Shown: positions 7,129 through 60,700 of the stretch, piece by piece
How positions within the stretch are numbered: the stretch's first letter is position 1
Layout of the letters: every line of letters begins with the position of its first letter
Origin: Pseudovirgaria hyperparasitica
Taxonomy: Eukaryota
Reading direction: 5' to 3' (one strand)
Assembly (NCBI GenBank): GCA_010093815.1
Contig: ML996566.1
DNA length: 64,000 bases
Made by a program: the position numbers and the translations under genes
The notes under the pieces: model-generated
The model's database searches: none
The model's input: the letters and a program-made list of their open reading frames with translations, nothing else
Told to the model about the DNA's origin: nothing

Positions 7129-10100
7129 ATGCCGCCGCAAACAAAGAGAAAGAATACAAATATTCAAAAGTTACAGCAACATGTATTACTATCTCTACCA
7201 GCCTCCTTACAAAGTACCAGCTCTACGACAGACCAGGATACTCTACACCAATTTCCACTTATATCCTCCCAAGTCCCTTTATTACGGCAGCATTCACGCC
7301 AACTTCTTCCCTCCAGTCCTCTACAACATCGAACTATTATCCCCTTTACACCCCGTCCTCCGCGACAGTCGTATCTTAAGAGCCAGAGCCGCCAACGTCG
7401 TCGCCGACTCCATAATGCCTTCCAATCATCACCCTACCACATCGCAAGCAATCCAAATACCCCCCAAACAACCCCATACCACGCTAATAGCCTTCCATAT
7501 ACACCACGGCGCACTCTCTTTGGCGTACACCCAGCCAGACCTCAATCTATTCAAAAGCCAATTCAATTCAATCTGCGACAGTCCCGGACAATAGGTAGTT
7601 CTATAGGTAGATTAGCAAGTATTACGATAGATGAATACCCACCAGACGACGTGTTTAGAACTCCTTCTATACCACAGTCAGGACTAACGCTCGCCCTACG
7701 ACAGCCACCTTTAGTCGTAGAGGAAGACTCCTCCCTAGACCCCCTACAGCAGACACCACGAAGTCGTTCGCGCAGAGAGAGTCGAATCGTCGCAATGCAG
7801 GAATCGCCGTCTCGACGACGGATACCGCCTATCCCTTACCAGCAGTCGCGTTATGACCAGGACTCTTCCTTAGATGCTCTCCAGCAAACACCACAAAGTC
7901 GTTCCCAGGTAGAGTATATCGTAAGGCCAGCGTCGCCGTCTCAGCAACGTGTACTCCGTACCCTACGCCAACGGTTACGTCGTAATCAGGAGTCTTCCTT
8001 AGACTCCCTCCAGCAGATACCGCAACCTCAATCCCAGGTATACCAAATGCCTATGCGTCAGCGTCGCGAAGTGGTGAATAATCGAGTACTATACTATACG
8101 ACAGGTACCTACTACCATAAACCTAGGCCAGCTACCCTATGCGCCCGTATCACCCACCCTATCACAAGTGACTTTCGGCATATTCTCTGCCGTCCAAGTA
8201 CGTCGTGTAGGTTCTGTGATGCCTCCTTCTGGCGTGAAGAGGTTCCAGCGACGAGGGTAAATGGGGAGATTCGGATGCCTTGCTGCGGCAATGGTAAAGT
8301 ACAGATCCCAGTACTACCTGAATATCCCCCCGTCTTACGCGAGCTTCTCTTACAGACACGACAGACTCGGAATAGTACTACTGTTTGGGACTACACGACA
8401 GAGAAGTTCCGACAGAGTATACGACACTATAACCAGTCAGTGTCATTTGTTTCTGCGAAGATCAACATTGAGAATGGCGCACTACAGGATGCTCTCCCAA
8501 GGAATAGCCATCAAGGCGTGTATACTCTGGTCGCAAAGGGTGAGCTTCTCCATTTTATAAGCAACCTACGACCAGACCACGACGACCCGAAGTATGCACA
8601 GCTATACATCTACGATAACCAGACTGAGCAGGGTAGGCTACGTCGTGCTGCGTTTCAGAATCTCCACGACGATATTTTACGACGCATTGAGGAGGTTCTC
8701 TACCGTATAAATCCGTTTATCCAGACATTTCGTATGAATGCGCAAACACTACGCGACCAGCCTGCCCTTGGTCTTAGTATTGGTATTATTGAAGACCACG
8801 ACCACGACCCAAGGAGATGGAATACACCAAACTGCGACGAGATTGCAGGACTCCTCCCAGTTGGGCCGCAGGGTGAGCCAGTTGCGGAGCAGCGTGATGT
8901 TGTGCTCCGATACATAGATGGTACTCTACGCCAGATGAGTGACCTCCATGCGACATATCTCCCAATGCGCTTTCCACTACTCTTTCCGCATGGGTCGCTA
9001 GGGTGGAACTGGAACTACCCTGCGCACCAGAATCCCTATTATCCTCGAGGCGCAGGCCGCCGTGAGCAGGCTATAGCTATTCCAGAGAGAGGTCGTGGTC
9101 GAGGTCGTGGTCAAGGTCGTGGTCGTGGTCGTGGTGATCGTGGTCGTGGTCGTGGTAGTCGTGCTATCGAAGATGAGCAGGCTCCAGTCCAAAATATCGC
9201 TACTAGGCGTGGATCTCGGCTTGGCCGTCGTGGGCATGAGCAGGAGCGTGTTAGCCAGCAGATGTGGTGGAACTGCTTCCTACAGCGCCGACCTAATTCT
9301 CTTAACCCAGTACTCCATGCTGGACGCCTATTCCATGAGGTCGTAATAGACGCATGGGCGTCAATCCAGGGAAATCGCCTTGCCTGGTGGCAGTAAAACC
9401 AGAGTAAGGTCCGTCGTGCACACTTTACTGGGCTCCTAGAGGCGCTTGGAAACTCTGATGTAACTGGTCGTGAGCTGGGAAGTACTATCGTGCTTGGGAA
9501 GACTTTCCATGGCGGGCCTCGGTTTATGCGAGAGCTATATTTTAATGCAATGGCTATGGCGGCGTATAGTGGGCCGCCAGAGTTCTTTATTACCATGACA
9601 TGTAACCCAGCCTGGCGTGAGGTAATAGATGAGCTGGCGCCAGGAGAATCAGCAACAGACCGAATTGACCTCTGCTGTCGCGTTTTCCATATAAAGCTGG
9701 CGCAGCTCCTACACGACCTAACGAAGAGCCATGTCCTTGGGAAGTGTGTCGCGTACTGCTACTCTGTTGAGTTTCAGAAGCGTGGACTACCACATGCCCA
9801 TATTCTTATTATTACGACACCAGATGATCGCGCCACTTCTATCGAAAAGATTGACGCCGCTGTATGTGCGGAGCTCCCAGACCCAAGCTCTGATCCAGTA
9901 CTATTTGGAATCGTCTGTCGTACTATGCTACATGGGCCTTGCGGCGACGTAAATCCGTTAAGCCCATGTATGACGACAAGTAAGAGACATCCTGGTCGCC
10001 GTAAGTGTCGCCATCGGTTCCCCTTTCCATATACGAATGAGACGTCGCTACCAGTCGGGAAAGAGCCATCCTACCGGCGTCGTGCTGGCGCATATACCTA

Positions 10101-12755
10101 CCAGAAGAATGATAATCAGTACATCTACTCAAGTCGGGATGTCGTGCCATATAATCCTTACCTTTCAAAACGGTATAATGCGCATATCAATATCAAGTCG
10201 TGCCATGGTATGGACGTGTTTAAGTACGTATTCAAGTACGTATATAAGGGCCCAGATATGGCAAATGTCCTTATACAGCGCGACAACCTGAATCCTTCTA
10301 GGTCGCACCTAGACCTAGGGCAGCAGGTACATATAGGTGGTGTACGGCATCGCGGCCGTGGTAATAGTCGTGCTCGAGCTGGTCGTCAGCAGCAACAGAG
10401 TTATCGTAGTACTGGCGCAGAGTATCCTCCCCAGGATCAGATTCTTGATGAGACAAAGGTCTTTGTTAACGCACGCTATCTCTCTGGCTGCGAGGCTATC
10501 TGCGGCATTATGAGTCTACCATCCCACGGCCAGTTCCCCCCTGTACAGGTACTTGCCGTGCATGAGGAGGATCAGCAAATGGTTGTCTTCCAACACAGCG
10601 ACAATGACTTACCAGGGAATATATCTATCCCGGCGCGGGCTGGGAATACAATGCTAACTGAGTTCTTTGTCGTAAACCAGCAGCGTGCTATCGCAGGGCT
10701 ACCACGACTCTATTACATAGAGATTCCCCAGTATTACACCTGGATCCAGGATAAGGCATGGCGCGAGCGACGCGGCAAGTTCTCGATTGGTCGTCTACTC
10801 TGGGTGCCGTGGACAGCTGGGGAGGTATTCTATCTACGAACTCTGCTTCTCCATGTCCCTGGGCAGGTATCATTCGACGACATAAGGACATATAATAGTA
10901 TAGTATATCCTACATACCGCGACGCATGTGCTGCACGAGGACTGCTTCATGATAATGGTGAATACCGGCTGGCGCTTGCAGAGATTATAGGTACTTGGCC
11001 TGCAGCAGGCCTACGACAGACATTTGCTATCATGGTACAAGCCAACGACCAAGGTAGTAATCGAGATCTCTGGGACCAGTTTAAGGATGCCCTTAGCGAC
11101 GACTGTATCCACCAGCTCCGTGAGTACTTCCAGGTCCCTGAGCCAACAGTCGCACAGCGATATGAGCTAGCACTCTGCTATATTCGCGACTATCTCCAGC
11201 ATATGGGAACGGATATGAACCGTGTCGCACTCCCTACGCCAGCCTTTGATTGGCTCTGCACGACTGCACCAGATGGAAATCGTATCCTTTATGAGCAGAT
11301 AAACTGGCGTCGTGATGACCTGGCGCAGTTTATTACACAGTATCTCCCTGGTCTGAACCAGGAGCAGCGACATGCATACGACACCCTATTAGGCGCTGTA
11401 GAGGCTGGTCGTGGGGGGGTCTTCTTCCTTGATGGGCCTGGTGGAACAGGGAAGACACTGGTACAGAATCTGGTACTAGATACACTACGACTTTCTGGGA
11501 AAGTCGCACTAGCAACTGCCTCCTCTGGTATTGCTGCGATTCTTTTACATGGTGGCACGACAGCGCATTCCCGTTTTAAGATTCCCCTCCAGGTGGAGCG
11601 CGACACCAGCTGTAATATTAGCGCCAGTACCCATCTTGGCCGTACACTCTGCGCCGCAGATATGTGTTTCTGGGATGAGTGTGTGATGTCGCATCGATAT
11701 TCTATTGAGGCAGTAGATCGAACAATGCGCGACATCCGTAATCAGGATACAGAGGCGTTTGGTGGTATGGTAATGTGCTTCTGCGGCGACTTTCGACAGA
11801 CTCTCCCAATTGTCCCACGTGGTACTCGGTCGCAGATTGTCCAATCATGCCTAAAGAACTCATATCTCTGGCCCCAGGTCCATATACTGCGCCTTACTAC
11901 AAATATGCGTCTTTGGGCGCCTGGGATGACAGAGCGTCGTCGTGATGAGGTAGGGCGATTTGCGGCAAAGGTTCTTGACGTTGGGAATCGCTCTGGCCGT
12001 AATGGGTATACCGCTTGGGGTACCCAGCACTTTATACCTGGTCGCAGCCTAGATGTATTAGCAAGCCGAATCTTTCCTACTATACGACAGCCTGGGGGTC
12101 TTACCTTAGAGGCCCTCCAATCATCTGCTATTCTTGCCGCACATAACCAGAAAGTAGATGTGCTAAATGAATATCTACTGTCGCAGATACCAGGAGAAGT
12201 TACAACCCGATACTCGGTTGACGAACCAAAGGATAATAATAGTGCTAGCTTTACGACACTCGAGCAGATGAACGCATTTAAGGCACCAGGAATCCCACCA
12301 CATGAGCTGCGACTCAAGATTGGATGTGTCGTGATATTACTACGAAATATCAATCCAAGTGATTGTCTCTGTAATGGTACACGACTTCGAGTACTGGTAT
12401 TAATACTAGAACTATCACGGCGCAGATCCTCGGTACACGACGACATGGAGAGATAGTCCAACTCCCACGGATACCATTCGTCGCAGAGAAGCTAAAGGAT
12501 GGGATGGACTTCAAGCGACGCCAATTTCCAGTCAAGCTAGCATTTGCTATGACAATTAATAAGTCGCAGGGCCAGAGTCTTCAGAATGTAGGCCTTCTCT
12601 TAGACCCAGAGGTATTTGCCCATGGCCAGCTATATGTCGCTGTTAGCCGCGTTACCAACCCTGAGGGTATCCATATTATCCCACCTGATAATAATAAGTA
12701 TATGCCAGATGGTATGCTAAGGAACGTCGTATACCCTGAAGTCCTTTCTACCTAG
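7129..12755 (+). pseudogene. Helitron RepHel transposase with a premature stop (9394-9396) and a 1-nt frameshift (about 12397)
   Basis: Zn finger CRFC...CC; Rep motifs FITMTCNPAW, VEFQKRGLPHAHIL (HUH), KYVFKYVYKG (Y2); Pif1 motifs DGPGGTGKT, WDECVM, GDFRQTLP, AMTINKSQGQS, HGQLYVAVSR spread over three consecutive ORFs. Confidence 0.95.
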
Positions 12756-49811: not shown

Positions 49812-51149
49812 GAGTCAGACGCAGCCAGATGGATTGACTGGATGGGTGTGTGTGCAAGCAGATGTGTGCACTTGGCGGTGATCTTGCGGCGTTGGTATAT
49901 ACCATTTTCTTTCACTCTTGCATATATAATATAGATGAGCGACGAGCGGTATGAATAGACCATTGCATCTTCAGGGACCTGTCTTGATCTGACTAGACGC
50001 CCTATGCTTGTCTCCTACTTTCCTATGACAGACGGTCGAATCAAAAAGACCCAGATATTGTACGCGGCTTTTCCACACAGTCACGTGTATCTACATACAT
50101 ACATAATACTCCTAGCGCACATACGTCGTCATCAACCAGCATGCACGACGCAGGAGACAACATCTCACCACCCACTAACTAACTCCCTAACACAACATCA
50201 CCCATCATAATGAGTATCCCTCCGATCAGGACACTTCTCTCAATCACGGTGGGTTTCCATTTAATGATATAATTACCCCCCAACCCGTGTCGCAGCCGCA
50301 GGGGAAAGTCGATTATAATCTTCCAAGATTTGCTTGGATCTCAATCTCCTTTGGGGGAATGATGGTGGTGGTGGTGATGATGGTGGTGATAATGGTGATG
50401 GTGATCGACTTCGTGTTTGCACTGTAGGTGTAGGCACACCGATTATGATGTGCGATGCTCGGTTATTGAGGAATTTTGGATCTACGCCTGCTTCTGCGGT
50501 TCTGCGAGGGGGAGGTAGGCAGGTAGGTGAGGTGGTGAGGTGGGTAAACGAGTCCAATGATCTCGATTATTCCTTTCTTATCGATTCTTCCATCCTTCAA
50601 AGGTTCTAGTTCTGTTCCGCTCAGCTCAGCTCAGCTCTACTTACTACCCCTGAGCCTAATCAGATATCATGCACTATGAGTTGTCCATTCTTCTCCCCGA
50701 CATGAGTATGAGTATGCTCGATAAAATGACTATCCTATGAAAATTTCTACTACGTTCTCCTGCACATTCGCCACCACCACCGCTAATGAATGCAATGCAC
50801 GCAACGCTGTACCTAATCGGAGTATTTATCTACACACATATTCTCCTACACACGTACGGGACGGTACTTTATGGGATGCGGCAGAACGCTCGGTCTTGGT
50901 CCGTGGTATGGACGGTAGGTAGGTAGGCGTATGTATGTATGTATGCGTGCTGTCATTCTCCCATATATACCTCGTCCTGCCTGCTTCGTTCTCTCTCTCA
51001 TCTAGACAGACAGACACACAGACACACAAACAGTCAGACATTCGTTACCCATCGAACCACCAACCGCCAACCAGCATTTCACTTTTTACTTTTCAACCAA
51101 AAACCACACCAACGCAACCAAACAACCAACCAAACCCCCACCACCAAAA

Positions 51150-51740
51150 ATGCACCCCTCAACCCTCCTCGCCCTCCTCCCCATCCTCGCCACCACAACA
51201 ACAGCCTCCTTCCCCGGCGGCACAAACTACTACCACGACGACACCCCCTACCACTCCGAGGTCCACGCCCCATCCTACATCCACTCCCTCAGCCCAGGCA
51301 CGACCCCTCTCCCCAGCGCCCCGTCATCCATTGCACACTCCTTCCTCCCCAGCGCCCCTTCATCCGCCGCATCCATTGCCGTAAACACCACATCCATCAC
51401 CCCATCCATCATCCCATCTCCACCCTCCTCGTTCGTCCCCGGTATCCCGTCCTTTACTCCTCCAACCCCGGCGCAATCCTCCTTCGTCCCGGCTGGGAAT
51501 ACGACGGTGTCGATTATCCCTACGCCGCCTGCGACTGGGTCGTCTGGGTTTGTGGTGGTTGGGAGTAGTACGCCGACGAGCGCTGGTAGTGGGTCTAGGT
51601 CTGCGACTCGTACTACTGGTGCGGCGATGGCGAGTGCGACGAGTCCTAGTGCTGCTGCGGCGGGAGCGGCGGGGTTGAGTGTGGGTGTTGTTGCGTGGGG
51701 ATTGGTTTCTGGGGTGGTGGTTTTTGTGGGGGGGTTTTAA
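51150..51740 (+). CDS. Secreted Ser/Pro/Thr-rich, probably GPI-anchored cell-surface protein
   Basis: Signal peptide MHPSTLLALLPILA; repeated SFxP units; small-residue omega region and hydrophobic C-terminus. Confidence 0.75.
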   Translation: MHPSTLLALLPILATTTTASFPGGTNYYHDDTPYHSEVHAPSYIHSLSPGTTPLPSAPSSIAHSFLPSAPSSAASIAVNTTSITPSIIPSPPSSFVPGIPSFTPPTPAQSSFVPAGNTTVSIIPTPPATGSSGFVVVGSSTPTSAGSGSRSATRTTGAAMASATSPSAAAAGAAGLSVGVVAWGLVSGVVVFVGGF

Positions 51741-52158: not shown

Positions 52159-53560
52159 CTACGTATACCACGTCGGCTCCGGCACCTCATCCAGCAGCAC
52201 GAACCGGCCCAACTCGTGATTCTTGTACGCCACAGGATCATGCAGCGTATGCGTGCGCACATCGCGAAAGAAGCGATCCAGCCCAACCTTGGCCGCCGTG
52301 GCGCGCGCACCCGTAGTCTCAAACACGCCCGCCGTGACGCGCAGCCCGGTATCCGTCGTCACGACCTTGACGGCTGCAACGGCCTCGGCCAGCACGCCGC
52401 GCTCGCGGGCGCTAAGCTGGGAGCGGGCCTTGAGATCCGCGGACGGGTAGCGGGCGTAGAGCGCTGCGATGTCAGCGGCAGCGGAGTCTGCGAGGGCTTC
52501 GGCGGCGCGGGCGTGGGCGTAGAAGTTGCCGTAGGCGGCGAGGATGTAGAATTCGTCTGTGGCGGCGGGATTTGGGTCTGGGGTGTAGGGCCAGGGGCGG
52601 GTGTGTTTTGCGGTGTAGCGGGCGGCGAAGGTGAGGGCGCCCAGGGTGATGCCGAGGTAGAAGTTGCTGAAGACGAGCTGGATGGTGGGCAGGAGGAGGG
52701 AGGCGTAGGGGATGCCGAGGACGGCAGGGTCAGGTTTCTGCCATTGCGGGTTCCAGCCGAGGGCGTCGGACCAGGGGGCGCGGACGTTGGAGATCTTGAC
52801 GCTGCCGGATTCAGTGAGGCGGAGGCCGATGTTGTTCCAGTTGTAGGCGAACTGGATGCCCGGTTGGGCAGTGGGGACGAGGGCGAAGATGTGGTCTTCC
52901 GTGCCGGCGTAGACGCCCTCGAGCACCGTCAAGTCGGAGATGACGCCGCCGGTGTTGAAGTTCTTGACGCCGTTGAAGACAATCTCGTCGCCTTCCGAGG
53001 TGATGGTGAGGTCGGAGTCGCGGGGGTTGACCGCTCCGCCGACGAAGTAGTTGTTGCTCGTGATGAGGTTTGCCACGCGCTCCGCTTGTTCAGGAGTGCC
53101 GACGACGTTCGCGGTCGTGGACCAGAGGAGATGGTATCCCAAGAGCATACCGAGTGAGCTAGGGCTTCTATCAGTCCCCTTCGTTCTGGACAATGTGAAC
53201 TCGTTTCTCTACTCACCCGTCTCCCTTGGCAACCTCACGAATGACCTTGTAACCAACGCTCCAAGAATGTCCACCACCACCGTACTTCTTTGGCCCCATC
53301 ACCTTCAGTAGACCAGAGTATTTGAGCAAAGCCACCTCAGCCCGCGGAGACTTGTTCTCTCGATCACGAACAGCTGCATCAGCTGCAAGCACCTCTGCAA
53401 CCTCCGCAGCTCGCTGCACCCATTGTGCTTCGGTGGAAGGTAGCTTGCCAGCCCACTTCTTCTCAAAGTCGGCATATACGGCCGGGTCAGTTTGCGGTAT
53501 AGACGCTCCTTCGCCGTTCGGCTTGAACGTCAATCCGTTTGAAGCTCCATTGGTCGCCAT
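52159..53560 (-). CDS. Acyl-CoA-dehydrogenase-fold flavin-dependent monooxygenase, SfnB/MsuC/DszC-like; 447 aa, exons 53560-53217 and 53158-52159
   Basis: AAVRDR, KGDGSLGMLLGYH, FNGVKNFNTG, WNNIGLRLTESGSV, QLVFSNFYLGI, GLDRFFRDVRTHTLHDPVAYK: motifs typical of DszC/SfnB-type sulfur-acquisition oxidoreductases. Confidence 0.88.
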
Positions 53561-54204
53561 TTCCTTCTCGGAAGTCTTGACGGAAGTGTATCAAGACGAA
53601 GAAGTCGGCGGTGCAGAAGTATATATCTACGTGCCCAATTGCATGGCTCGCAGTCCTGGCATTTTATCCCCAGTCACAACAATCCTTGGATGTAGAGCTG
53701 CCAGTAGTCTCGTCAAGCGACCTATCATAGTCACCAGTTCCCACTGATGTTGATGGGTGTTGCTATGGCGTGCTGAGACATCGGAAATGGGGACGCGCTA
53801 ATGCTGTGACTGTAGAGTGAAGATCCGAGAACGCGGAGAGGACAATAGAGGGTATTGGCAACTTTTGTTTTGTATTTTCGTTACGGCAGCGTCTCCTTGG
53901 TGAGGCGGGATGTGTCAGAGTGAATGCCGGTCGGATGATCTACTCATGGGCTGGATTGCGTGCTCAAGTAGCTGGATGAGAGAAGCGATGTCGCTTATCG
54001 CTCTCCTATCGGTCAAACGATTAACCAATCTGTACCCAGACTGCGATATCATATGGCGCAGCTAAACAAGCCCCTGTCATGTCGCGGCTTTCGCTGCGGG
54101 ATGATGTAAGTAGTCGACGGATTCGTTGCTGTTGTTGCAATCTACTCTACCAATAGACATCCCTACGCCTTCGAATATCGCCGTCTGGCTATTGCATCGG
54201 CACC

Positions 54205-55742
54205 ATGACAGCGACCGTATCAGTCACCGCACAGAAACGTGCCTTTGATGAAATAGACGATGACAGAACGTTGAAGCACCGCAGGGTGGGCAATGTTCCG
54301 AATCTGCAGCATCAGCTTCTTCTACACAAGAAGGCTCAGCCATTTGAACTGCATCGGGCTGGAGATGTTCCCGTCGCAAAGCCTGGCGAAGTCCTTATAG
54401 AAATACAAGCAGTTGGACTGAATCCCATAGATTGGAAGAGCGCGTAGGTCCTCTCCATGAAGCTTTGTTTGGTAGACCACTGACGACTGGAAAGGTTATA
54501 TGGTTTCGCGATACCCGCATTCCCCTGTATCAGTGGACGCGAGTTTGCAGGGACCGTGGTATACGCAAATGGCAAGAATGATTCTGGAATAGTAGTTGGA
54601 GACCGTGTAAGTAATGCACTGCAACCTGTAACAAAAGCTGATGGTGCTGGCATATCAGGTGCTGTCAATAGCCACCGACTATCGCGACTTTCGAAAGTCT
54701 GCCTTCCAGCAATACGCAGTCTCGACTGCATTCAACGCTGTCAAGATCCCAAGACATGTCGACCTCGCACATACCACATCTCTCGGCGTCGCATTCGTCG
54801 CAGCTGCACTCGCGCTTGGGGTATGCCTCGGTGTTAACTTCGCAGGCCCAGTGACTGAGAGGTCCCTCTTGAAGACAGCCCAGAATCAAGATCCTGAGAC
54901 TTTGCCCAAAGACGTACGAGACGAAGTTCTGAACGCAATTTCCCCTAGCCACACGCCATATGCAGGAGATTGGATTCTGATATACGGAGGTGAGAACAAC
55001 CACTGATGACAAGACCTCGTGGGACTGACTTCCGCCATTCAGCTTCCTCGATCACAGGGCAGATCTGCATACAGCTATGCAAACTAAGCAACCTAAGAGT
55101 CATCGCCGTAGCAAACGAGTCTCGTCATGGCGAGAGACTCCGGGCTCTAGGGGCCGGTACGTCACGAGGCTGGCGAATACCAGTAGACATGCTGACATTA
55201 CAGATCTAATCGTGGACCGCGAAGACTTGGACAAGGCAGCAACGCAAATCCGCGAGTCCGTACCAGGCTCCTTACGCTTTGCGATAGACTGCGTAGGCAA
55301 AGAGACAGCTGCGTGGTGTCAAGACCTTCTGGCGGGTCAAAGTGCTCTCCCAGCAGCAGAGCTTCGCCGTAGATCGGAGGACCGTGGCAGCGATCCAAGC
55401 AACCAAGGCTATTTAATGTGCCATCTGGTCGGCCTGACAGGTTTGCCGAAGGAACAGGCGGCTAGTGTCAGACAACACCAGGTGCCCATCAAGCTCTTCC
55501 ATGAGAATCACGCCCTGGGACGGGAAATGAGCTCATGGTTGACCGAGCTACTGGGACAAGGCCTCTTACAACTACCGGAGGTCGAATTGTTGAAGGGAGG
55601 ACTTGGGTCCATTAATGCGGGGTTGGACAGATTGAAGAGCGGCGCCTTGTCGGGAAAGCGATTAGTTGTGGAGCTCGACCACATGCTCGAGAGCAAGTTG
55701 GCTGTTTGGCCTCCAGAAGACGGCGGCTTCTGTTGGTGTTGA
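54205..55742 (+). CDS. MDR-superfamily (enoyl-reductase/zeta-crystallin-like) NAD(P)H oxidoreductase; 5 exons
   Basis: PGEVLIEIQAVGLNPIDWKS, GREFAGTV, GDRV, AFQQYAV, ILIYGASSITGQICIQLCK, FAIDCVG, GGLGSINAGLDRLKSGALSGKRLVV; four canonical introns; no catalytic-Zn CHSD motif. Confidence 0.85.
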
Positions 55743-56284
55743 AGCTTGCAGTCGAAGTGTCCTGGACAAATGATGTCGTCGTCTTCGTCGTCGTCGTCGT
55801 AGAGGTTCGCACTAGCATAGCGTATTAGACAGTTTCAGGGAGACTTGGGCTTACCAAGATCCAACCAATGAGATTGGCATCCAGCAAAGTTACACGTCTA
55901 GCGCGAGTCAACGGACCTGATCGCGCCATACACATGACAATTGCAACACTGCTCTGGTGTTTGAATGGTGCTGGCGATCAGCTGTGGGATAGAAGCTTGA
56001 TCCTGGGTGATGTGATCGTTTGAGGGGTAGTACGTGATCTATCGGGTAGCCATCGACATGAGATGTGAAAGAGAACCATTGCGTAGGAGAGGAGCAGAGT
56101 AGAAGCTACGACGAAATGGAGATGGTGTCCTTGTAGTGGTGCTGCATTTCAGGTCATAATCGAATATTGAACCACTTTCCTTGTGGTCGTGGAATAATTG
56201 TCGTGTTGCGTTCTGCGACAGTTTGCTATATCCTGATATCCTGAGCACTCTTTTATCTCTTCCGTTCGCTCCCGTGCAACCATC

Positions 56285-57561
56285 ATGGCCAATTCCAACA
56301 TCAATTCAGATCCAGAACGAGTCAAGTTTGCGTAAGTAGCCGAAGCAAAGCTAATTGCATAACGTTGGAAGCTCACATCGCCAGGTACTGGGTACCTAAT
56401 GTCTCTGGAGGCTTAGTGATATCAAAAATCCCACAAAAGACAAGCTGGGACCTGAAGTCAAACATCAGCTACGGACGAACTGCCGAGGACGTCGGTTTTG
56501 AGTACGCACTCACTCAGATTCGGTTCACGGCCGGGTACGGCGCTGCAAATCAGCACGAATCAGTCAGCTTCAGTCAAGCTATCCTGCAGGGTACGGAGAA
56601 GCTGAAGCTCATTGCCGCGCTTCTGCCTGGACCGTGGAATCCAGCCGTCGCAGCAAAGCAGATTGCATCCATCGACAACTATTCAGAAGGCCGAATTGCA
56701 GTCAATGTCGTGAGCGGATGGTTCAAAGGCGAGTTCACGTCCATTGGGCAATGGTGGCTCGACCACGCAGAGAGGTATCGTCGAAGCAGAGAGTTCATGG
56801 AGTGTCTACGAGGCATCTGGACAGCAGGCGAAGACGGATTCACTTACAAGGGAGACTTCTATCAGTTCCACAACTACAACCTCAGCCCTAAGCCGATCCA
56901 GAAGCCGCATCCCGAGATATTCCAGGGTGGTAACAGCGACGACGCACGAGACAACGGTGCTGAAGTGGCTGATTGGTATTTCATGAATGGCAACACACTC
57001 AAGGGCTTCCGTGATCAGATCCAAGACGTCAAGGCACGTGCCCGCAAAGTTGGTCGCGAAGAGCACGTCAGATTCGCCGTCAACTCGTTCGTCATCCTGA
57101 GACCGACCGAAGCTGAGGCTGTTCTACAGCTTCAGGAAATCCAGGGCAAGGCCGACAAGGAGGCCGTAGAAGCATTCGGTGAGGCTGTCAAGTCTGCTGG
57201 AAGCTCGACCAGCAACAAGAAGGGCATGTGGGCGGATAGCAAGTTTGACGACCTTGTACAATATAACGATGGCTTCAAGACGAAGCTCATTGGCACCGCA
57301 GAGCAGATTGCAGACCGAATTCTACTGCTCAAGAGTCTCGGCGTCAATCTGGTGCTGACGGCATTCCTTCACTACGAGACAGAAATTGCGGCATTCGGAG
57401 CAGAGGTCCTGCCATTAGTGCGTAAGCTCGAAGCTGAAGGCCGTGGAAAGGATGCAGAGTTTGAGATTGCGAAGACTGGAGCAGTGTATGAAGACAAGAG
57501 AGTCGTGAATGGCGACGCGAATGGAGACGCGCGACCGGCGAAGCGCGCGAAGAAGGCCTGA
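56285..57561 (+). CDS. sfnG: Luciferase-like FMNH2-dependent monooxygenase, SfnG (dimethylsulfone monooxygenase)-like; 407 aa, exons 56285-56331 and 56385-57561
   Basis: KFAYWVPNVSGGLVISKIPQKTSW, GFEYALTQIRFTAGYGA, QHESVSFS, WLDHAERYRRS, PEIFQGGNS, GMWADSKFDDLVQYNDGFKTKLIGT closely follow bacterial SfnG as recalled. Confidence 0.9.
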
Positions 57562-59153
57562 GGCAGTACTTGCAGCCTGGGGCAGTAATTGTAGCCTGAG
57601 GCACCGAGTTTCATCGTCGGCGAGATCACCTCTCTATTTCTGTCTTCTCTAAAATCTACTGTACAAATCAGCATATACCTAATACTAGTCTAGTAGTCGT
57701 GCAAGTATGGTAATGATCCAAGCGCCTGAATGGCGGAATGAAGTATTGTTGTTACATATTGCTACAACCCCAAATTCTCCATACTAGATAATCTTCTACA
57801 AAACCACTCGCATGGATGTGTTGTAGCAAAACCATGATACAGCACAGCCAACCTCCCACCTCCCCACAAAACCCCAGCACAAAGCCCCACAAAGAACAAG
57901 GTATATCCAAACCAAACCGACAAAGCGCCGTGCCGTGTCTTGGACGCCCCTTTCAACGACAGGCGCACAGAGACACCCAGTAATTAAAGTCAAGTCAGGG
58001 GATGGATAGCACCGGGTAGGAAATCGAGAACGTCATAGTGCAGACGGATAGACAGATATTAGGAATGGCATGTCCTCCTCATCGTGAAGCATCAATCCAC
58101 AGGCACGACTTTCGATCTACTTCTATATCACAAGCCCGATGTCTGGACGGAACCGTGGCCGTAATTCATTGTTTTCTTCATTCATTCGTTATACTGTATA
58201 CCGCGTACATTTGAACAACACATAGAGACGCCGATTAATTCGACCGTAGTAGACACGCCAATCCCTCGCGCCGCGCCATGCCATGAATGCCATGCCCATA
58301 AGTGTTCACCCAAGAACAACTCCCGAGCCCAACACCGGCACTTTCAAAAAAACGCCCGAGAACACCATGCATCATCGCAACAACAGCAACGAAGAAGAAA
58401 AACACCACAGCCACCCAACATCACACGAACTTGCAAAAGCGTTTCACCAGACCTAGATGCACCCACCAACTCTCGCCCCGGCTGCAGGCCAGGCACTCAG
58501 AAGCCTCAAAAAGAGGTTGTCGATCCCCCCTCCCCTCCCTCAGCCCCCCGAATCCCAATCCGATCACTCCCCGAAAAACGCCAAGCCCGAACCCCAGTGT
58601 TGTGCATCCAATCCCAAAACACACACCAACACCCCCTTCGATCATGCGAGCAATTCACCCAGCAAATCAAAACCACACGCGCATCTTAATAAGAGAACAA
58701 GAAAAAGGAATAGCCATGTCAGACCAAACGTGATTCGCTGCCAACCCCAGATTTTCGCCCATTTGCAGGCGCCACTGCCGGCCGGGTGGCGAATTCATGG
58801 GGTTGAATGATGTGCATCGCGGATACGTCGGGAGGAAAGAATAAGGTGGTGGTGGCGAGTGTGTATTGTGACTCGTGGGTTTCCAACTGGGCGCACGCGT
58901 TTTTGACAGGGCGGGCCTGGCCGTTGTCAGATCAGCGGGCCGTTTTCTGGAATACCAAGGGGGGTTTCGCTGGGGGAAGTATAAAGCAACGACTGGGCCC
59001 CGTCCAGGTATTAAGGCGCAGCACACACACACATTGCACATGACGGAGCCTTGTCTCGTCATTCCGATCGAAGACCCTCGGCACAACTACTTTGGACATT
59101 CAGACCTTTGGGTTCGTGAATTCACGACATCTTCGCTCGTGGGGATTTTTATA

Positions 59154-60700
59154 TCACGGTCGGTCTTGCTCCACAAAGAAGCGTGCGCCGTTGTCGACGG
59201 CTATCCGCATCAGATTCGTCATTGTTGCGGTGCAGGGCTGCTTCAGTGTCATGGACACGCGCACGCTCTGCTGGCCGGGGATGTTGTACTGCGCCGCGTA
59301 GAGATTCGTGTCTTCGGTGGTGGCAGTCATGCTCATATCCGCGTCCATGGATCCAGTCGGATACCCGTAGCCCGCGGACACGGAGTAGCTGCCCATCGCC
59401 GGACTTGTGGAAGCAAACGTCGGCGATGTGGTCAGTGTGTTGCTGAAATACGTGCCGACGTAGCCGTCTGCGGAGCCCTTGTGTAAAAGAGCTGGATCTA
59501 CAGAGCTGTCTGCGTTTACTTGGGACTGGTTCCACCACGTCTGTGGTGTTGGCGTGGGAAGATCGGCATAGGCCGCAGTATCGTATGACGCGGTGGGCAT
59601 GCTATATCCGCCGTAGTAGGTGGAGGAGTTGTATGAAGGGGAGCTGACTTGTGGAAATACAGAGTCTTCGGCTCCCCAGGAGGTACCGAAGTCGCTGTTG
59701 CTATAACTAACGGACCCGCGGGTGCTATCTGAGTAGGTAGGGGAGTTTCCTGTTCTTGCACTGTCGATTCCAGAGTCATTCTCGTAACTACACGAGAAAT
59801 CGTGGTCTGTCTCGGACTGGTATTCACTTTGTTCGTCGTCGTCATCGTCATCATCGTCATTGTTGTAGTAATTGGCATATGCATCAACGCTTCCTCCCTG
59901 GTTTTGGATCTTCCGCGTCAGGACTGTATATCTGGTCGAGAGTTAGCTGTGGTCTGACAAGGATGCATCAAAGTCTTACCTATTCTTGATGCAATTCTTC
60001 GATCTTCCGGGAAAATACAGCTTTTGAATCTCCTTCCAGTGTCGGCCGATTTTGGAGACTGCATAGAGAAGTTGCTGGTTCTGGACATTTGTCAACAATG
60101 AAATCCTGTACGAAGCAACAGACCAGACGTACCTCTTGCTCGGACCATTCACTTCTATCAAGTTCTGGATCCAAAGACTGCTGCCATCTTTTCGCGCATT
60201 CTATACGGAATGTCAATATGTTTGTTATACAGGGAACGGATAGCAGGGGTACTGACGGTCTGCACTCCTGGTCCTTACTTCCTCAGCAACCAAAGTCCAT
60301 CTACTATGACGTCAGTCTACGTTCTAAATATGACTTCCATGGAAAAGAGCAATGGTACGACAGGGTGGAATAAGGGACCTCACCTCTGGCCATGACGTTC
60401 AACGCCTCGTCGTAGCAGAGCGTCTTCAGACTTGGCCCATTGACCTTTCTTGAGGCCTCCTGCAACAGCGTTGTGCCAACGCTTCCGGCAGTCTTTATTT
60501 GTGCGTCCAGGGAGTTTCGAGGCAATCCGGCACCAATCCTTTGCTTCCCCTTCGGCAACTATAGGAGGCACAATCAACACTACTGTACTGGGTGCTGGCA
60601 GTGACCGGGGGCGTCAAAGGGTCCACTCACGTTGTGCAAGGACCTCATTTCTTAGAGCTTTGTCCTCCTCAGCCGTCCATTTCCTAGGCATGCGAGGCAT
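59154..60700 (-). CDS. Three-repeat Myb transcription factor with an acidic/Ser-Tyr-rich C-terminus; about 6 exons
   Basis: RKWTAEEDKAL|DWCRIASKLPGRTNKDCRKRW; KKGQWAKSEDALL|WTLVAEEVRTRSAD|CAKRWQQSLDP; SEWSEQE|WKEIQKLYFPGRSKNCIKNR|Y; then poly-Asp. Confidence 0.88.

Follow-up and report, generated by a model that had tools for sequence, protein, structure and literature searches.

Does a filamentous fungus carry its own genes for drawing sulfur from dimethylsulfone (DMSO2) and similar organosulfur compounds, and if so, which genes belong to the set? The question is raised by four adjacent, intron-containing genes at positions 52159-60700 of a 64,000-nucleotide stretch of contig ML996566.1 (hereafter the window) from the Pezizomycotina fungus Pseudovirgaria hyperparasitica. 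In order, they encode a protein of the acyl-CoA dehydrogenase (ACAD) fold (minus strand), an oxidoreductase of the MDR family (plus strand), a homologue of the bacterial dimethylsulfone monooxygenase SfnG (plus strand) and a Myb protein (minus strand), and the gene models, with spliced transcript contigs for three of the four genes, bear out the coordinates and orientations first proposed from the sequence alone. That sequence-only reading took all four as one organosulfur-scavenging cluster, with the Myb as its regulator. We favour a smaller set, and put at about two in three the probability that the first three genes form an organosulfur (sulfone) module of this fungus and that the Myb gene is an unrelated neighbour. 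In the proposed pathway SfnG, an FMNH2-dependent luciferase-like monooxygenase, would most likely cleave one C-S bond of DMSO2 or other dialkyl sulfones, giving a sulfinate and an aldehyde. The ACAD-fold enzyme would oxidise sulfides or sulfoxides to sulfones before SfnG, sulfinates to sulfonates after it, or both, the MDR would supply the monooxygenase with electrons from NAD(P)H, most likely via flavin reduction, and sulfite would be released by further enzymes encoded outside the window.

SfnG and its ACAD-fold partner across fungi

SfnG (exons 56285-56331 and 56385-57561, plus strand, with a predicted intron at 56332-56384; 407 aa, PF00296) was placed in its family by the exon-2 frame alone, which scored 554.1 bits against TIGR04021, the NCBIfam equivalog model for SfnG (cut-off 382.95), the next-best model being alkanesulfonate monooxygenase at 137 bits. 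The solved SfnG of P. fluorescens (8t0u) matched the window protein with 463.5 bits across the whole barrel. In the P. fluorescens enzyme, DMSO2 is bound by R55, W121 and N297, an aromatic cage is formed by W11, Y60, F267, W285 and Y296, and the oxygen chemistry involves Q53, along with N116 at the O2 site (PMC11588060). Alignment to 8t0u showed that the window protein keeps all ten of these residues, and across 35 fungal SfnGs they are invariant save for Y60, which is nearly so. Of the contacts to the FMN phosphate and ribityl groups, H136, Y140 and S189 are kept in the window protein, and S188 and N284 are replaced. The model cut-off, the match to 8t0u and the conserved active site thus confirm what had been called SfnG-like as a member of the SfnG family.

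The best 120 relatives listed for this protein were all from Pezizomycotina or unnamed environmental proteins, at 72-83% identity, and some of the fungal proteins are already annotated as 'dimethyl sulfone monooxygenase SfnG'; the best bacterial sfnG genes were 56-65% identical to it. Ancestry was examined in a tree of 114 rows, built by a quick search and rooted on eight paralogues of the luciferase-like monooxygenase (LLM) family, in which the bacterial rows, like the bacterial loci discussed below, are the best 80 of at least 587 matches to a fungal SfnG query. Twenty-six fungal sequences formed one clade (SH-aLRT 100), nested in a 64-row group that otherwise consists of Pseudomonadota (support 97), and cyanobacterial, actinobacterial, myxobacterial and other SfnG clades fell outside that group. 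This topology supports a single bacterial origin of the fungal SfnGs, and for this gene the bacterial derivation suspected from the sequence holds.

The ACAD-fold gene (minus strand, 447 aa) runs from a start codon at 53560 through exon 1 (53217-53560) and a 58-nt GT..AG intron (53159-53216) to exon 2 (52159-53158, including the stop codon), giving a coding sequence of 53560..53217 joined to 53158..52159. Its product carries all three acyl-CoA-dehydrogenase domains, PF02771 in exon 1 and PF02770 and PF08028 in exon 2, and on this domain content belongs to the group D flavin-dependent monooxygenases. The gene had been described as SfnB/MsuC/DszC-like; the fold and domains stand, and orthology to any of the three does not. 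The protein (P0121) scored 198.2 against the SfnB model TIGR04022 (cut-off 430.9) and 268.6 against the DszC model NF043015 (cut-off 850). Its best solved relatives were MsuC (6u76, 177 bits) and DszC chains (173 bits), and the 177 bits to 6u76 compare with 692 bits for a Pseudomonas MsuC orthologue (L103:14631-15779). In the ACAD tree, 23 fungal proteins formed one clade (100), to which one actinobacterial gene, 52% identical, is sister; the two together are sister to the MsuC-like clade rather than lying within it, and the fungal clade is separate from the SfnB-proper genes. The cut-offs and the tree position exclude the gene as an orthologue of MsuC, SfnB or DszC.

Genes of this fold are common companions of sfnG in bacteria, being present in 57 of the 80 bacterial sfnG loci, where they fall into three groups (SfnB proper, SfnA-like and MsuC-like), the MsuC orthologue of L103 being in the last. 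The actinobacterial sister gene itself lies in an operon of an Actinomycetota metagenome-assembled genome (L106:4114-7881), together with an SfnA-like ACAD gene and sfnG; no bacterial gene in this analysis came closer to the fungal ACAD, and the fungal SfnG groups with Pseudomonadota instead. Bacterial group D enzymes oxidise dimethyl sulfide (DMS) to dimethyl sulfoxide (DMSO) and DMSO to DMSO2, and MsuC acts on methanesulfinate, with weak activity on DMSO (PMC13352529). Because its bacterial relatives have these activities, we read the fungal ACAD-fold enzyme as most likely an S-oxygenase that would act upstream of SfnG, downstream of it, or both.

The association of the genes was assessed by scanning metagenome contigs with the ACAD protein, which yielded 56 fungal-type loci falling into 45 groups at 97% nucleotide identity. 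Nineteen groups had at least 5 kb of sequence upstream of the ACAD start, and among these SfnG lay within 5 kb of ACAD in ten, the MDR in six and both in five; the linkage of ACAD and SfnG is beyond chance. Gene order and strands were the same as in the window in four loci (L009, L033, L041 and L043). Among the 18 named species found in both protein listings, 14 have SfnG and ACAD on contigs of matching size, and the locus tags are 2-3 apart in five of the six species in which they could be compared (Kalmusia, Bogoriella, Hymenoscyphus, Drepanopeziza and a Mollisiaceae species), Piccolia being the sole exception. In Bogoriella the MDR (M1820_006934) stands between ACAD (M1820_006932) and SfnG (M1820_006935), adjoining SfnG, and in Exophiala spinifera an SfnG (KIW15895) and a DszC-like protein (KIW15893) are two accession numbers apart (PMC11778650). 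The co-conservation expected of four genes was therefore found for SfnG, ACAD and MDR, and failed for the Myb, which appeared in none of the 45 groups. Beyond SfnG, the flanking genes vary by locus and include a GH3 gene, a tyrosine phosphatase and a fibronectin type III (fn3) protein.

The commonest partner of ACAD in these loci is a gene absent from the window. A channel gene of the Gpr1/Fun34/YaaH family (GFY, PF01184) lies directly upstream of ACAD, on the same strand, in 20 of the 56 loci, or 16 of the 45 groups (L001, L008, L009, L016, L020, L022, L025, L026, L030, L033, L038, L039, L040, L041, L043 and L050), and sits between MDR and ACAD where both occur. This channel might carry small organosulfur anions. 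Two loci also have a transporter gene of the SLAC1/TDT family (PF03595) beside the GFY-ACAD pair (L025:6101-7879 and L030:4745-5931), the family to which the yeast sulfite pump Ssu1 belongs.

The MDR oxidoreductase and its fusion to SfnG in other fungi

The MDR gene (plus strand, 444 aa) has five exons, at 54205-54443, 54495-54606, 54659-54989, 55043-55156 and 55204-55742, and its product joins a GroES-like domain (PF08240) to a Rossmann domain (PF00107). Where zinc-dependent alcohol dehydrogenases carry GHE, this protein has 'SGREFAG'. Among solved structures the enoyl reductase LovC (3b6z) comes nearest to the MDR, with quinone oxidoreductases also close, and one homologue of the MDR is named 'trans-enoyl reductase lepG'. 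On these features it is classed as a zinc-free enzyme of the quinone-oxidoreductase or enoyl-reductase type, without catalytic zinc ligands. MDR relatives were found in none of the 80 bacterial sfnG loci.

A direct physical tie between the MDR and SfnG comes from other fungi. By motif search, 18 of the 467 proteins collected proved to hold an MDR tail, a linker of 30-60 aa and an SfnG start in one chain. A second search gave 14 MDR-linker-SfnG chains, drawn from further fungi and from contigs without annotation, and added two to the 18. The junction is spanned by six cluster representatives, and two of the fused chains (P0108 and P0119) are annotated as SfnG only. Five fused proteins were called on unannotated contigs whose other proteins are single-exon pieces, and these five are taken to be single continuous frames. 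Mis-merging of neighbouring gene models was considered as a source of the fused proteins and rejected, given these five from unannotated contigs (on which ACAD, for example, appears as the pieces P0122, P0140 and P0180) and the recurrence across taxa of both the linker and the motif 'LAYADKLN.DP.R'. In the SfnG tree every fused form belongs to a single 15-row subclade (support 87), a distribution consistent with a single fusion event, and the window SfnG, which is split from its MDR, lies outside that subclade.

The position of the MDR gene also has a counterpart in bacteria. Of 13 bacterial loci sampled, three, all from Pseudomonadota (L103, L132 and L108), have sfnG immediately preceded, on the same strand, by an FMN_red gene, and five have a flavin reductase within 3 kb of sfnG. 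The fungal MDR occupies the slot of the FMN_red gene in those three loci, and neither FMN_red nor Flavin_Reduct domains were found in the open reading frames (ORFs) of the window or in 237 ORFs of 18 fungal-type loci. The proposal that an MDR stands here instead of an FMN reductase thus gains support from the natural fusions and the shared slot, and we infer that the MDR passes reducing power from NAD(P)H to the monooxygenase, with flavin reduction as the most likely route. A bolder scenario would make the LovC-like MDR a new NAD(P)H:flavin reductase that displaced the SfnF-type enzyme in situ after SfnG had entered an ancestor of the Pezizomycotina, the MDR-SfnG fusion a self-sufficient, single-polypeptide sulfone monooxygenase, and the GFY channel a carrier of small organosulfur anions such as methanesulfinate and methanesulfonate. 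We put this forward tentatively, as a combination whose chances fall clearly short of even.

The main rival to a role in supplying reducing power is that the SfnG-linked MDR handles the aldehyde co-product, be it formaldehyde or a longer one, or some other small carbonyl or enone, with the fusion channelling a toxic product and a general FMN reductase supplying the flavin. MDRs are classically alcohol/aldehyde or enone reductases, and fungi whose SfnG-ACAD pairs have no MDR nearby must obtain their flavin from elsewhere. The SfnG reaction does yield an aldehyde (PMC11588060), and FMN reductases are conserved in fungi (Linder 2018, PMC5857272). The MDR in question, however, takes exactly the place that an FMN reductase gene has in L103, L132 and L108, is nearest to enoyl and quinone reductases rather than to aldehyde-reducing alcohol dehydrogenases, and is without the zinc-ligand pattern described above. 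We consider aldehyde handling unlikely, and prefer the reading in which the MDR would deliver electrons to SfnG.

Gene structures, transcripts and regulation

The products of the ACAD, MDR and SfnG gene models are each 100% identical to P. hyperparasitica database proteins (P0121, P0241 and P0001, respectively), every modelled intron is GT..AG, and the cluster genes are monocistronic. Transcript evidence was taken from contigs of two public runs (X1 and X2) of unrecorded library type. The ACAD intron (joint 53158->53217, in contigs from both runs), MDR intron 2 and all five Myb introns are skipped in these contigs, which are therefore RNA-derived and confirm the models; MDR intron 2 is spliced in run X2 at a depth of 11, versus ~36 for the unspliced form. 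With spliceosomal introns present, and contig joints for ACAD, MDR and Myb, the sequence-only reading of these genes as intron-containing is upheld.

The contigs also reveal RNA from the minus strand. Inside SfnG exon 2, run X2 has a joint (56449->56508) that removes a minus-strand intron at 56450-56507 with CT..AC ends, which can also be read as 56452-56509 on the minus strand (GTGCGT..CTTCAG), and a contig of run X1 spans 52659 to 56451 with the ACAD intron spliced out and the MDR unspliced. Spliced minus-strand RNA (window 52659-57530) is thus antisense to SfnG and to the whole unspliced MDR, and contiguous with spliced ACAD mRNA. It may represent an extended 5' leader belonging to ACAD, or else an antisense RNA with a regulatory role. 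A separate plus-strand GT..AG joint at 57896-57991 (depth 3.7; 94 bases skipped), in the 3' spacer between SfnG and Myb, may be a 3'-UTR intron or belong to a separate small transcript.

For the control of these genes, the sulfur regulator CYS-3 of Neurospora crassa offers a reference, with a footprint consensus of ATGRYRYCAT and a DAP-seq motif of ATBRCGCCAT (PMC8550094). The intergenic DNA of the cluster in 12 loci (30.4 kb in all) has six footprint-consensus sites, four of them with the same 10-mer, against one in the remaining locus DNA (158 kb, promoters and other sequence together). Within the window, the spacer between MDR and SfnG, which includes the SfnG promoter (55743-56284), contains ATCGCGCCAT at 55920-55929, an exact match to ATBRCGCCAT located 365 bp upstream of the SfnG start. 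The divergent promoter region between the ACAD and MDR start codons (53561-54204) has one CYS-3-like site with a single mismatch (53765-53774), which is not significant; the window as a whole has 18 such one-mismatch sites versus 20.5 expected. In N. crassa, the 'methanesulfonate monooxygenase' NCU10015, a candidate SfnG orthologue, rises ~7-fold on sulfur starvation and is CYS-3-bound, and the DszA-type cluster NCU05884-05888 rises by two or more orders of magnitude and is likewise CYS-3-bound (PMC8550094). Control by a general sulfur regulator of the CYS-3/MetR type appears more likely than control by the Myb.

The Neurospora cluster deserves mention in its own right. According to the supplement of PMC8550094, NCU05884-NCU05888 are five adjacent genes that go from <1 to ~28-235 FPKM on sulfur starvation, all of them CYS-3-bound, and they encode an MFS protein (Seo1), a flavin monooxygenase, a DUF895 membrane protein, an 'oxidoreductase' and a DszA-like LLM. 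This makes them a second, different fungal organosulfur cluster that pairs an LLM with an oxidoreductase.

Several observations weigh against a three-gene sulfone module with the MDR as its electron donor. The MDR's match to LovC is only 69 bits, and we know of no MDR that acts as a flavin reductase. It is missing from at least five linked SfnG-ACAD groups and is therefore not obligatory; two loci (L031 and L034) hold a bare SfnG-ACAD pair between unrelated genes. Two FMN contacts are replaced in 35 of 35 fungal SfnGs, S188 by asparagine and N284 by methionine (N199 and M297 in the window protein), a change that may go with another mode of flavin delivery. The SfnG and ACAD trees indicate different bacterial phyla, both being quick searches on the best 80 bacterial rows. 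At the level of regulation, the window's own cluster promoters contain no ATGRYRYCAT site, the two matches in the window both lying outside the cluster (1.26 expected), and the two exact ATBRCGCCAT matches in the window, against 0.79 expected, are not significant alone. No spliced form of the SfnG intron (56332-56384) was found in the RNA-derived contigs of either run, and the main RNA across MDR and SfnG is the antisense one. Finally, the remaining ORFs of the window contain no other sulfur gene, whether a methanesulfonate-cleaving LLM, a sulfonate dioxygenase or a transporter, and the pathway is therefore locally incomplete.

This last point, the lack of sulfur-assimilation genes in the window, would also suit a module that serves not sulfur nutrition but secondary metabolism, or else the breakdown or detoxification of sulfides and sulfones that are xenobiotic or come from a host. 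Such a function would accord with the kinship of the MDR to the lovastatin enoyl reductase LovC and to the homologue named lepG, and with the various dialkyl sulfones that SfnG takes (PMC11588060). Yet no polyketide synthase, non-ribosomal peptide synthetase or tailoring genes lie beside the cluster, in the window or in 18 scanned loci, and the genes that are linked to it elsewhere encode small-anion channels and transporters (GFY and SLAC1/TDT). The enrichment of CYS-3-type sites in related clusters also speaks against a non-nutritional role, as does an active site that is the DMSO2 site residue for residue. We regard such a role as improbable, and retain sulfur scavenging as the more likely function of the three genes.

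The fourth gene, a three-repeat Myb with six exons (59154-60700, minus strand; 411 aa), has its repeats at the N terminus, PF00249 being matched in two of the four Myb pieces tested. That it is a pathway-specific regulator replacing SfnR, in a four-gene cluster, we hold to be very improbable: it lies 1.6 kb beyond the SfnG stop and convergent with SfnG, is strongly expressed and correctly spliced, and fungal clusters often include their own transcription factor, but the genes that flank SfnG vary among loci, related clusters have an enrichment of CYS-3-type sites in their promoters, the Myb's contig depth (690/215) is unlike the 38-153 of the cluster in the same runs, and tblastn with the whole Myb, DNA-binding repeats included, found no relative (E<=1e-5) in the 56 loci of 45 groups, seven of which extended 3.2 kb or more past the 3' end of SfnG. 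A search of the Atlas with the C-terminal exon of the Myb gave no usable match. We judge the Myb to be an unrelated neighbour outside the gene set. Its transcript contigs, with a depth several-fold that of the neighbouring genes, extend ~1 kb past the stop codon (58102-59153), as a long 3' UTR.

Elsewhere in the window are housekeeping genes, a gene for an alpha/beta hydrolase and a Helitron-like ORF. The latter (9397-12453, plus strand) is of the Helitron transposon type, with Helitron helicase-like N-terminal, PIF1 helicase and Pif1 2B domains. A 244-aa ORF (51006-51737, plus strand) immediately beyond the 3' end of ACAD is rich in Ser, Thr, Pro and Ala, has no Pfam match and looks like a secreted or cell-wall protein.

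Relation to known systems and meaning

The closest point of comparison is the sfnFG/msuEDC system of Pseudomonas, comprising SfnG, MsuC, MsuD and the FMN reductases SfnF and MsuE. The fungal SfnG is orthologous and has the same residues at the DMSO2 and O2 sites, an ACAD-fold oxygenase is linked to sfnG as in most of the 80 bacterial loci, and in both the gene immediately preceding sfnG encodes an enzyme that uses NAD(P)H. In contrast to Pseudomonas, that upstream gene encodes a zinc-free MDR of fungal type rather than FMN_red, the ACAD-fold protein falls outside the MsuC clade and below the SfnB cut-off, the locus is without MsuD/SsuD and without the sigma-54 activator SfnR, the genes are monocistronic with introns, and the SfnGs carry the invariant substitutions S188N and N284M. 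The 4S pathway of Rhodococcus (DszC, DszA and DszD) similarly pairs a group D S-oxygenase with a group C LLM that cleaves sulfones, and DszC matches the fungal ACAD-fold protein about as well as MsuC does (173 vs 177 bits). The fungal protein nevertheless stays far below the DszC model (NF043015, 268.6 vs 850), the fungal LLM is of the SfnG rather than the DszA type, and no DszB is present in the window. For the fusion, natural reductase-oxygenase fusions of the StyA2B type are a precedent for a two-component oxygenase joined to its electron-supplying partner; the partner there is a flavin reductase domain, whereas here it is an MDR that would reduce flavin.

The DMS pathway of Acinetobacter baylyi (Dms1-3, SfnG, MsuC, SsuD and a single reductase, MsuE) resembles the proposed fungal route in its group D oxidation of DMS through DMSO to DMSO2, and differs in being described for a bacterium only, without an MDR and without a fusion (PMC13352529). 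Within fungi, FMNH2-dependent monooxygenases of the same family, PF00296, have been predicted to act on sulfones and sulfonates in sulfur assimilation (PMC5857272), and in N. crassa members of this family belong to the CYS-3 regulon, being CYS-3-bound and upregulated under sulfur starvation. The NCU05884-05888 cluster of that regulon is of the DszA type, however, and has partners other than the SfnG-ACAD-MDR set (PMC8550094).

A part of this picture was thus anticipated. Such monooxygenases were described as conserved in fungi and as uncharacterised (Linder 2018, PMC5857272), and a 2026 paper on Candida albicans states that their contribution remains unexplored (PMC13170222). To present these systems as chiefly bacterial, as the sequence-only reading did, therefore overstates the novelty of finding them in a fungus. 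The cited passages of PMC5857272 make no mention of an SfnG-ACAD-MDR cluster or fusion, and full-text literature searching turned up no work on a fungal SfnG, the present cluster or any MDR-LLM fusion. In sum, fungal homologues were predicted before, and the cluster and the MDR-SfnG fusion were not found in print. The interest of the locus, which we rate as moderate, is driven by the fusion and by the putative replacement of the reductase in situ; the analysis also corrects an attractive yet unsupported assignment of a Myb regulator.

The natural MDR-SfnG fusion offers a direct and inexpensive way to learn how reducing power reaches a two-component flavin monooxygenase in a eukaryote, and may provide a self-sufficient biocatalyst for C-S cleavage. 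On a wider scale, the oxidation products of DMS (DMSO, DMSO2 and methanesulfonate) are a large flux of sulfur onto land, the use of which has been worked out only in bacteria (PMC13352529, PMC11588060). If the reading proposed here is true, filamentous and lichen fungi would take part in that sulfur cycle through a conserved, horizontally acquired SfnG module shared by Dothideo-, Sordario-, Leotio-, Eurotio-, Lecanoro- and Arthoniomycetes.

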